A stretch of DNA of 64,000 nt, taken from positions 26,846,001-26,910,000 of the forward strand of contig OX597831.1 of NCBI GenBank assembly GCA_951406725.2, written 5' to 3'. The stretch is from Octopus vulgaris (taxonomy: Eukaryota). The notes beneath the pieces were generated by a model. That model saw nothing but the letters and a program-made list of their open reading frames with translations. It made no database searches and was not told where the DNA came from. Every line of letters begins with the position of its first letter. The stretch's first letter is position 1. This document shows positions 2,195 to 29,237 of this stretch, one piece after another. The position numbers and the translations under genes are program-made.

Positions 2195-3021
2195 TCTTTC
2201 TTTATCCCCGTCTGTCTTGATAGACAATGGGTTGCGCCAAGGGTGGGGCCTACTTTGATGATGTGCAGCGTCTGCTGTGACTGAACAGTCCAATTCTAGA
2301 GTGGCAGTCCTTGGTACAGTTGCTGCACACGAACATCGATGGGTACGTGTGGGGTGTTGCTGCAGTTGTCCTCCTCCTGTCACGCCTGTCCAACCACAGC
2401 TGTGCTCTCCTCTCCTCAGCCATGGAAACACCTTTCCTCACCGTCCGACGCCAAGCAGAGCGGTCAGCAGCTGTTTCCTCCCACGTGTCCACACAGATGT
2501 TGGCAGTCCTCAGGTCGCGCTTGCACACGTCCCTGTATCGTAGCTGTGGACGTCCCTTGGGTCGGGATCCCGTGGTGAGTTCGCTGTACAGGATGTCTTT
2601 GGGCATGCGACCGTCCTGCATGCGGCAGACGTGTCCGAGCCAGCGCAGTCGTCTCCGCACGAAGAGGGCATACATGCTTGGCATATTAGTCTGTTCCAGG
2701 ATGACTCCAATTGGCACTCGGTCCTTCCAGGAGATGCCAAGGATCCGTCGAAGACACCGCATGTGCAAGCTGCTGAGGCGGCATTCCTGCCGGATGTATG
2801 TTGTCCAGCTCTCGCTGCCGTAGAGTAGGGTGCTCAGCACACAGGCTCGGTACACTGCGATCTTGGTGGTTATTGTGAGCATGTTGTTTCCCCACACTCT
2901 CCTGGAGAGCTTAGCCATGGCAGCAGCAGCCTTCCCAATCCGTCTGTTCAGCTCCGGCTCGAGGGACAGGCTGCTGGAGACCGTCGATCCCAGGTAAGTG
3001 AACTCGTTCACCACCTGCAAG
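2195..3021 (-). mobile_element. 5'-truncated RTE-clade LINE with 16-bp TSD
   Basis: Open frame 3020-2250 reads FTYLGS..ELNRRIGKA..LLYGSESW..RRLRWLGHVCRM..PKDILYSEL..RPKGRP..W..RSAWR and ends in a CxxC..H..C finger. The 3' tail is (AAAG)-like. CTTTAAAAAGATATAT occurs at both 2179-2194 and 3022-3037. Confidence 0.95.
2250..3020 (-). pseudogene. C-terminal part (end of RT, thumb, Zn finger) of RTE LINE ORF; stop-free but lacking its 5' part
   Basis: 256-aa ORF in the track with the RTE motifs listed above. It has no true start codon. Confidence 0.9.
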
Positions 3022-3029
3022 CTTTAAAA

Positions 3030-22610: not shown

Positions 22611-23220
22611 TTTCTTTTTTTTTTATCTAGTTTCAGCTCACGAGCTGTGGCCATGCTGGGGCACCGCCATTTGGTGTTGCTACATGATTTTACTTCACGA
22701 ATGCTTTTTAGCAATTGCCATTTGGTGCATGAGAGAGTTCGATGCAGCTGCCCTCATCTGCACCTCCTGCCGTGAAGTTGGTTCATCTGGGACACATGAC
22801 AAGAAGAGATCCAGTTTTATTTTAAAGACATCTGCATCCACTCCATGCAGGTCTCTCAGGTTCTGCGGGAGGATATTGAAGAGCTGTGGGCCTCTGAAGC
22901 CCAGGCTATCACAGTATCTCGTCCTACATCTTGATGGCAAATTTGGAGTCCTTGGCACTATGCAGTGGCGCCCACTTCTGGCATTTGTGTAACTCTCGAT
23001 GCCAAAGTTTGGGACAAGTCCTTCTAGGATCTTCCAGATGTATATTATGGCATATCTTTCTCGCCTAGGCCCTAAGGAATAGAGTCTCAATCTCTTGAGT
23101 CTTTCCCAGTAGCTTATATGCTGCACAGAGGCTATCTTCTTCGTGTAGCTTCGTTGGATCGCCTCAAGTTCTGTGATGGTGACCATAGCTGAGAGCAATA
23201 GTCAAAGTGGTTAGGACAAG
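22611..23220 (-). mobile_element. 5'-truncated CR1-like LINE (ORF2 C-terminus plus 3' UTR)
   Basis: Reads DYCSQLWSP, a frameshift, then [51 protein letters not shown]. The 3' UTR ends ggcggtgccccagcatggccacagctcgtgagctgaaac plus an A-rich tail. Confidence 0.9.
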
Positions 23221-27250: not shown

Positions 27251-28065
27251 TAGAGATAAGTGTTTCCGGCTGAATGAAAGAACAATGGCAACAGTGAGAT
27301 GAAGGACAAAGTAACATTTAATAAGGAGGATATTGAAATGTAGAGGTTGCTTCCGTTAGATGGTTGGTACTGTCATATTTATATTATAAGATATGTTTAA
27401 TAAAAAAATAATAATAAAAGAGGTATGAAATGCATGGAAAAATTTGAACACTTCTCTTGTCTGACAAATTCTGTAAGTATGTATGGTGTGTGTGTGTGTG
27501 GGGGGGAGATGTGTTTATGTGTGCGTGTGATCCCAAGTCATTCTTTTAATTTCATATTAGGTTCTTTATTTACCAAGCGTTTATATTCTGAAGCATGTGT
27601 ATATTGAGCTGTAATAGCAGGTTATTAGTATCACTATGTCTAAGCGAAATCCTAATATATATATATATATATATATGGGGCTGGCCGGATCGGAACGATC
27701 TCAAGATTAATCAGCCGAAATTGCGAGGATGATCCGGTTCTTGACTGAAGATTAAAGGCTTCGAATGTCCCGTCCGTGTTTTTTGTATCGTCTTCTAAAT
27801 GTTTTGCGTTCTTGTCCCAGTTTTTTTTTTTTTACATATATATATATATATAATAAATCTCTGAGCGAGGTATAAACAGTAACTGCTCTTTAATATAAGC
27901 GGGATCAGCCATCTGAATGTGGCAAGGGACAGGGCGGGGTGGTGGGGGTGTTACTGATGCATTTAGCCCCAGGCGACTATTGACGTCACCAGAAGAGCCG
28001 ACACCATCACGGTGTCCTTGCTGGCCTGCAAAGGGAGATCAGCCTCCCCGAAGATACGGATGCTA

Positions 28066-28108
28066 CACACGGACCGGTTTCGAGGTAATCGCCTCTCGTC
28101 AGCGCATG
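28066..28108 (-). ncRNA. Minimal type I hammerhead ribozyme
   Basis: CAUGCG-CUGACGA-GAGG cgauua CCUC-GAAA-CCGGUC/CGUGUG, with a complete conserved core. Confidence 0.85.
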
Positions 28109-28456
28109 GCAAGCACCGTTCTTCGTTGAGGGACTTCCTGTACAGGCCAGGTATATATAGATTTTCACAGTAACCACAGGCACTGGCGTAGAAAATCTGT
28201 TCGAAAACAATAATAAATCTCTGAGCGAGGTATAAACAGTAACTGCTCTTTAATATAAGCGGGATCAGCCATCTGAATGTGGCTAGGGACAGGGCGGGGT
28301 GGTGGGGGTGTTACTGATGCATTTAGCCCCAGGCGACTATTGACGTCACCAGAAGAGCCGACACCATCACAGTGTCCTTGCTGGCCTGTGGTTACTGTGA
28401 AAATCTATATATATCTGGCCTGTACAGGAAGTCCCTCAACGAAGAACGGTGCTTGC

Positions 28457-28499
28457 CATGCGCTGACGAGAGGCGATTACCTCGAAACCGGTCCGTGTG
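28457..28499 (+). ncRNA. Minimal type I hammerhead ribozyme; predicted cleavage after C28493 (GUC)
   Basis: Same motif as 28066-28108. Stem I extends through cgaagaacggugcu / agcauccguaucuucg. Confidence 0.85.
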
Positions 28500-28930
28500 T
28501 AGCATCCGTATCTTCGGGGAGGCTGATCTCCCTTTGCAGGCCAGCAAGGACACCGTGATGGTGTCGGCTCTTCTGGTGACGTCAATAGTCACCTGGGGCT
28601 AAATGCATCAGTAACACCCCCACCACCCCGCCCTGTCCCTAGCCACATTCAGATGGCTGATCCCGCTTATATTATATATATATATATATATATGCGAGCA
28701 AAACGCCCCTCGTCCAATGGACGGTGCTGAGTTGTCGAACATTTAAACCAAATTTTCTCAAAACAACTTGTCCGACCGTCCCATAGGCCTCCCCATTGAG
28801 AAACACTGATTAAACCTCCTTAACGAGGCCTTCAGTTTTTGAAACACTCCTTCAAGCCTCCAGCCTCGCGTAAACCTTGGAGTCGCAGCTGTAAAGTATC
28901 CAGTGAATCAGCTCCACATCACTATATAGT

Positions 28931-29237
28931 GGAGGCACATGGCCTAGTGGTTAGAGCAGCGAACTCGCGGGCGAGGGATCGAATCTCAGACCAGGTGATG
29001 TGTGTGTTTATGAGCGAAACACTTCAGTTCCACGCGGCTCCGCCAGAAGGTAATGGCGAACTTCTGTTGACTCTTTCGCCACAACTTTCTCTTACTCTTT
29101 CCTCCTGCATCTAGCAGCTCACCTGCGACAGACCGGTGTCCCGTCCAGGTGGGAAACCTATACGCCAATGAAACCGGGAAACCGGCCCTTATGAGCCAGG
29201 CATGGCTTGAGAAGGAACAAACAACAACAACAACAAC
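28931..29237 (+). mobile_element. Type C-head SINE with alternative tail ending (AAC)n
   Basis: Head ggaggcacatggcctagtggttagagcagcgaactcgcg; tail gacagaccggtgtcccgtccaggtggg..gaaaccggcccttatgag. Confidence 0.8.

Follow-up and report, generated by a model that had tools for sequence, protein, structure and literature searches.

In the genome of Octopus vulgaris, a 360-nt repeat family with a hammerhead ribozyme (HHR) motif is, as we read its insertions with considerable confidence, a non-LTR retrozyme whose copies were probably made from uncut RNA by the reverse transcriptase (RT)-endonuclease of Penelope-like elements (PLEs), primed from the two ends of a broken (TA)n tract. As the unit has no ORF, the retrozyme must move in trans. 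The analysis starts from a locus in a 64-kb stretch of contig OX597831.1 (positions 26,846,001 to 26,910,000, here called the window).

The locus lies between a left (27836..27851) and a right (28675..28693) (TA)n target tract, which adjoin its two outer ends, and consists of two arms joined head to head and both pointing outwards. With the reverse complement of 27851-28210 taken as the unit and numbered q1-360, the long arm (27851..28388, minus strand, 538 nt) comprises q183-360 followed by q1-360 and carries what we call the long 3' end, and the short arm (28384..28674, plus strand, 291 nt) comprises q30-320 and carries the short 3' end; both assignments are based on repeat comparison and family statistics. 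The tandem part amounts to 1.5 units (direct repeat of period 360, 27850-28028 vs 28210-28388) with 2 differences, the inverted arm differs from 27891-28181 at 3 positions, and 4 distinct substitutions were counted over the whole locus. At the junction the arms overlap in a GCCTG microhomology (28384..28388). Family statistics further delimit a 40-nt tail (q321-360, 27851..27890, minus strand), present at the long-arm end only, which probably separates two start sites of reverse transcription, as judged from work on PLEs (PMC11167929, PMC8557442). Six-frame translation of a unit dimer gave short frames only. An earlier sequence-only reading of the locus had described the non-coding tandem, the flip at GCCTG into an inverted copy, the (TA)n setting and about 4 substitutions, all of which we recover, as we do its statement that the tandem part crosses a cleavage site and stops about 43 nt before the next, which would be at 28432, 43-44 nt past the long-arm end. 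The inversion is equally present, but the head-to-head form proved to be the rule of the family and no peculiarity of this locus. Each arm has one predicted cleavage site, on opposite strands, so that no circle is releasable, and the window locus is therefore predicted to be an inert dead-end daughter; a read-through transcript would be predicted to fold into a 291-bp hairpin.

Elsewhere in the window, both insertion flanks (27678-27817 and 28696-28817) are fragments of other repeats with very high copy number, a further abundant repeat, SINE-like, occupies 28930-29220, and two stretches on the minus strand (2253-3023 and 22698-23201) hold open frames that by eye resemble C-terminal fragments of LINE proteins. 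No host gene was recognised among the long open frames of the 64 kb.

Both arms contain a putative type I hammerhead. The first motif (28061..28115, minus strand; core 28102-28072) has its predicted cleavage after the C at 28072 and was called from motif, fold and covariation, and the second (28450..28504, plus strand; core 28463-28493), called from motif and fold, would be cleaved after the C at 28493 and has the stem III palindrome ACCGGU. The core, CUGACGA-GAGG-CGAUUA-CCUC-GAAA-CCGG-UC, corresponds to q109-139; the 26-nt core pattern is matched twice in the window and in none of 100 shuffles. Helix lengths are 6 bp for stem I, which continues into bulged extensions, 4 bp for stem II and 2 bp, plus the palindromic loop (ACCGGU), for stem III. 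The predicted monomer fold has a long bulged stem I (z -2.96, with 0/100 shuffles equally stable), and an explicit dimer is predicted to fold stably at -25.9 kcal/mol. The core named in the sequence-only reading was thus located in both copies, and its palindromic stem III and bulged stem I were recovered. That reading's reference to minimal HHRs needs refining, as the stem sizes fit the canonical metazoan type I HHR and not the PLE 'minimal' HHR, both as defined in PMC4209133; one subfamily of the otherwise canonical motif has A at position 8. An Rfam scan gave no hammerhead family at E<=1, only (TA)n-driven miRNA matches and one chance match to a viral UTR, and the ribozyme call therefore rests on motif, fold and covariation. 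As to the last, the family (family A) and its sister family B show compensatory changes on both sides of stems I, II and III, with 96% of cells paired, in an alignment of 8 rows (7 distinct) that amounts to a single two-family comparison. These changes point to selection on the ribozyme fold.

At the 40 best-scored candidate regions of the 2.8-Gb genome there are 133 matches to the unit, and q140-160 has 115 exact matches in the genome. We dissected 78 distinct loci, besides which 6 more are known; sampling relied on matches to the whole unit or to its middle part, with arms shorter than about 180 nt under-sampled. Head-to-head architecture was found in 51 of the 78. Among 141 arms, the 3' end lies at q~360 (plus a few bases) in 69, at q315-322 in 55 and elsewhere in 17, and the 5' ends are scattered over the whole unit; of the permuted start points that the sequence-only reading had suggested looking for, only the 5' ends vary, the 3' ends being fixed at two sites. 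The two ends are strictly paired. A long end faces a short end in 45 of the 51 head-to-head loci, the remaining 6 have another end, and neither long/long nor short/short pairs occur, a 45/45 pairing that independent choice of ends would give with p 6e-14. The (TA)n sequence is found at both ends of 40/51 head-to-head loci, at one end of 6/51 and at neither end of 5/51, and all 5 loci of the last kind, outside (TA)n, are flanked by target duplications of 11-13 bp. The longest arm, 2019 nt or about 5.6 units, consists of tandem units only.

These features are those by which non-LTR retrozymes are recognised, namely a tandem repeat of about 150-450 bp with no ORF or LTR structure and target duplications exceeding 4 bp, and equally those of PLE-mobilised sequences, in which partial tandems go together with a 5'-truncated copy in inverse orientation, one terminal tail of 30-40 nt and an AT-rich target. 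The 'active' arrangement of at least two consecutive HHR-bearing units (preprint bioRxiv 10.64898/2026.07.22.740005) is present in the 19/141 arms that cross at least 2 cleavage sites and is absent from the window locus, whose subfamily comprises 9 loci at 0.9% from its majority. The unit is covered at >=92% by contigs from sequencing runs that bear three different organism labels; related species thus probably have the family too. Contigs of four runs that are possibly RNA cover parts of it and are uninformative on level, strand, ends or circles. At two loci lying 0.47 Mb apart (L140 and L141), one arm has at q164 and q182 the alleles of the subfamily to which the other locus belongs, possibly through gene conversion.

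Sister family B is older and more abundant than family A, has the same tail and is colinear with it over the whole unit (score 253, shuffle maximum 108); a first look gave 2680 candidates for it, of which 40 were scored. It, too, occurs in tandem and head to head, with an HHR whose stem III palindrome is ACUCGAGU; L193, L194 and others within L177-L206 are examples. Among 30 loci with an exact tail match, the upstream bases assign 7 to family A and 15 to family B and leave 8 unassigned. Pieces of family B beside PLE frames (L218, L389) were considered as linked parts and rejected, as they look like separate insertions. A further old and abundant hammerhead-like family, with the core CUGAGGAAGG...GAAACCGGUC (L153-L170), is unrelated to the 360-nt unit by BLAST.

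Of the 40 loci with a simple two-arm structure, 17 have arms that each extend over unit sequence missing from the other. This indicates that both were copied from a template and not from each other, and on these grounds we rejected the idea that one arm arose from its partner by fold-back. Each locus appears to derive from one haplotype: 54/995 diagnostic columns are discordant, several of them being alignment gaps, and 9 rare alleles are common to units within one locus, one of them spanning all five segments of L013. Exact homology at the junction reaches at least 3 nt in just 10/51 head-to-head loci (6% expected by chance) and at least 5 nt in 5/51 (0.7% by chance), and 15/51 have filler. 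Arms stop at the cleavage site (q136-144) 3 times as against 143 crossings, which is the background rate. The template was thus presumably uncut at this site, being either a circle or an unprocessed multimer, and a cleaved linear monomer was rejected as the main template. An ADAR-type bias was likewise rejected, since A>G (25) and T>C (21) are balanced among the private changes, which are mostly C>T and G>A.

We consider a PLE-driven, two-ended insertion well supported and envisage the following course. A source copy with several units would be transcribed into RNA that is not cut at the ribozyme site, being either a circle formed by dimer cleavage and ligation, which has about an even chance and is favoured for arms of 3-6 units, or an unprocessed linear multimer, with a chance just short of that. 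The GIY-YIG endonuclease of a PLE would nick both strands about 11-13 nt apart, priming would start at q~364 from one 3'-OH and at q~320 from its counterpart, and both cDNAs would stop at random and be joined by short homology or filler. At AT-rich DNA, purified Poseidon PLE (PAc) cuts both strands and extends them; it initiates at two internal positions of the RNA, which delimit the tail, and has a preference for RNA that is uncleaved (PMC11167929). Counted against the model are the scarcity of exact junction homology given above, the fact that the unit shares no sequence with the ends of five PLE families in the genome, and a report that only 1/9 Xenopus retrozyme dimers were cleaved in vitro (bioRxiv 10.64898/2026.07.22.740005).

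Candidate enzymes are present in the same genome, where autonomous PLEs with intact RT-GIY-YIG frames have the retrozyme's two kinds of end and (TA)n targets. Nep-1 (781-aa frames) and Nep-2 (775 aa) both encode RT and GIY-YIG domains, and we take them to be Neptune-type from their CxxC linker; a homologue search with the Nep-1 protein returned RT/GIY-YIG relatives, and Nep-2 forms perfect tandems of 4271 bp. Both families, seen at L065 (1506-3851) and L267, are very young and have an upstream ORF1 and intact frames, and their hammerhead-like cores deviate (UUGAUAA; CCGAAGA). Three further young families were designated P3, P4 and P5. Long and short ends in (TA)n occur in Nep-1, Nep-2, P3 and P5, and P4 shows a single end among the ten copies listed. 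The ends of all five families are no closer to families A and B than shuffled sequence is, and identification of a partner by end homology was rejected accordingly.

More direct contacts are provided by two head-to-head chimeras, in which a retrozyme arm with the short end is joined to a PLE arm with the long end, the PLE being of a different family in each. The first, involving a young, 5'-truncated part of P3 and a CTGC overlap, is found at L264 (968-2900), L369, L371 and L373, and these four copies share their flanks and so represent one event, a block duplicated with its flanks. The second, at L392 (1570-2921), joins an arm of the CUGACAA subfamily described below to the Neptune-type P5, the hammerhead-like motif of which combines U3-A8 with a stem III, ACCGGU, identical to the retrozyme's. 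At a third locus the unit is joined in line to the 3' UTR of P4. The chimeras, only 2 events, could be deletions between neighbouring insertions. A bolder idea, which we put forward as possible though doubtful, is a concerted two-template insertion: a pair of PLE proteins would use a single RNA start at each DNA end, combining a long with a short one every time, on templates that may be different RNAs, and the retrozyme would parasitise several unrelated PLE families, sometimes supplying the short-end half while PLE RNA gives the other. On the same idea the ribozyme would be dispensable for copying, and the core-broken subfamily would be a cheat that spread either without cleavage or after cleavage in trans via the palindromic stem III.

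The ribozyme may also be a passenger. In that case the family and the PLE mechanism would be the same, and copies would derive solely from uncut linear multimers with no circular RNA; we give this slightly less than an even chance. In its favour is the CUGACAA subfamily, in which the C3-G8 pair is lost to a C3-A8 mismatch and which nevertheless accounts for 27/88 exact core matches (by a pattern that misses a subfamily with a 5-nt loop) and for 19/70 loci covering the core position, with 1.1% divergence. A single C3G or G8C change abolishes hammerhead cleavage (PMC11167929), the natural alternative to C3-G8 is U3-A8, and for the G8A change no usable activity data were found in the literature. 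Moreover, catalytic HHR mutants left PLE insertion in vitro unchanged (PMC11167929), and the arms with at least two sites are usable as linear templates. Against a mere passenger stand the ribozyme stems, kept through the compensatory changes between families A and B, the concentration of subfamily variation within family A in loop II, and the relative rarity of arms with multiple sites in the CUGACAA subfamily (2/38 vs 17/84 for the others, p 0.056). The sequence-only reading had proposed a multimeric or circular self-cleaving RNA as template, copied in trans by a Penelope-like RT. Its read-through of a multimer or circle and its PLE signatures stand, but the abundance of CUGACAA and the in vitro use of uncleaved RNA by a purified PLE (PMC11167929) argue against the need for a self-cleaving circle; for family A a circular template has about even odds.

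It is improbable, in our estimate, that the unit is instead the pLTR of an autonomous PLE outside those found, the loci being its 5'-truncated copies. The tail, inversions and targets are all PLE-like, vertebrate retrozymes have been derived from pLTRs (bioRxiv 10.64898/2026.07.22.740005), and our genome searches scored the best candidates only. Arms of up to 2019 nt made purely of tandem units speak against this origin, as does the distribution of PLE protein matches, which were seen in 4/198 and then 6/218 unit-bearing or related loci (partly redundant sets) and at L392, with no regular pLTR arrangement in either set. Conversely, the unit was found in 4/30 P3 loci (the one duplicated event), 1/30 P4 and 1/30 P5 loci. 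Among the sampled loci and the five PLE families there was no RT/GIY-YIG frame flanked by the unit and no pLTR homology, and none of the copies serves as the regular terminal repeat of a PLE, which bears out the earlier preference for a retrozyme over a solo pLTR of a known parent. An origin of the tandem and inverted structure in DNA-level events (satellite expansion, fold-back repair) or in misassembly, for which one could cite the proposed local tandem amplification by unequal crossover (bioRxiv 10.64898/2026.07.22.740005) and the finding that none of the public contig pieces listed bridges the window junction, is highly improbable in view of 51 loci with differing junctions and the same two outer ends, target duplications that enclose both arms, and the many pairs of arms that are not nested. 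The contigs came from four further runs, in which repeats are skipped, and showed no empty allele either.

By the sequence-level definition of PMC7229834 the octopus family is a member of the metazoan non-LTR retrozymes, a class already known, and we regard it as a new member that is probably mobilised by PLEs. It shares with them a few-hundred-base non-coding tandem unit with one type I HHR and no LTR structure, duplications exceeding 4 bp and autonomous PLEs alongside; mussel retrozymes of 350-390 bp give circles (Mytilus galloprovincialis; Cervera and de la Pena 2020, PMC7229834). It differs in having mostly 1-2 units per arm, head-to-head arms, two fixed 3' ends and one core-broken subfamily; the word 'inverted' does not occur in the main text of that paper. 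Like the retrozymes of the preprint (bioRxiv 10.64898/2026.07.22.740005), it has a similar unit size and a proposed PLE derivation, but the link made there consists of co-occurrence and pLTR phylogeny in vertebrates, with no mollusc, whereas ours consists of insertion anatomy, with no homologous pLTR found. Partial tandems, an inverted 5'-truncated copy and a one-ended tail of 30-40 nt are PLE traits (PMC8557442, PMC3846280), and EN+ PLEs (Poseidon, Neptune/Naiad, Adineta Penelope) share with the family partial tandems, inverted copy, tail, AT-rich or (TA)n targets and short target duplications, which are of 8-10 bp in Adineta Penelope (PMC3846280). In contrast to these, the octopus retrozyme has no ORF, and Poseidon in vitro uses its two starts with no strand difference (PMC11167929), whereas each octopus insertion has one start at either end. 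MRC1 and other non-autonomous PLEs of Chlamys are similarly non-coding and multicopy head to tail, with PLE-type ends, but they generally resemble an autonomous partner at the 3' end and are mostly without HHRs, whereas the octopus family has an HHR and no matching partner was found (PMC8557442).

Literature searches yielded no octopus or other cephalopod retrozyme, and the words 'hammerhead', 'ribozyme' and 'retrozyme' are absent from the main text of the O. vulgaris repeat annotation. A strict pairing of long and short ends in a retrozyme was likewise not found reported. For PLEs, a tail at one end is known qualitatively. The octopus family offers unusually direct genomic evidence for PLE mobilisation of a retrozyme. 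As movers of animal retrozymes, 'LINEs or PLEs' are named as candidates in PMC7229834, and the preprint (bioRxiv 10.64898/2026.07.22.740005) describes the mobilisation mechanism as still to be elucidated. With a PLE-specific tail on a 360-nt non-coding RNA, one start of each kind in all 45 informative insertions and young intact PLEs alongside, the family bears on which enzyme moves animal retrozymes and on whether the ribozyme or the circle matters. For the existing in vitro PLE assay it supplies a substrate of minimal size, enzymes to try and a core mutant that occurs naturally.
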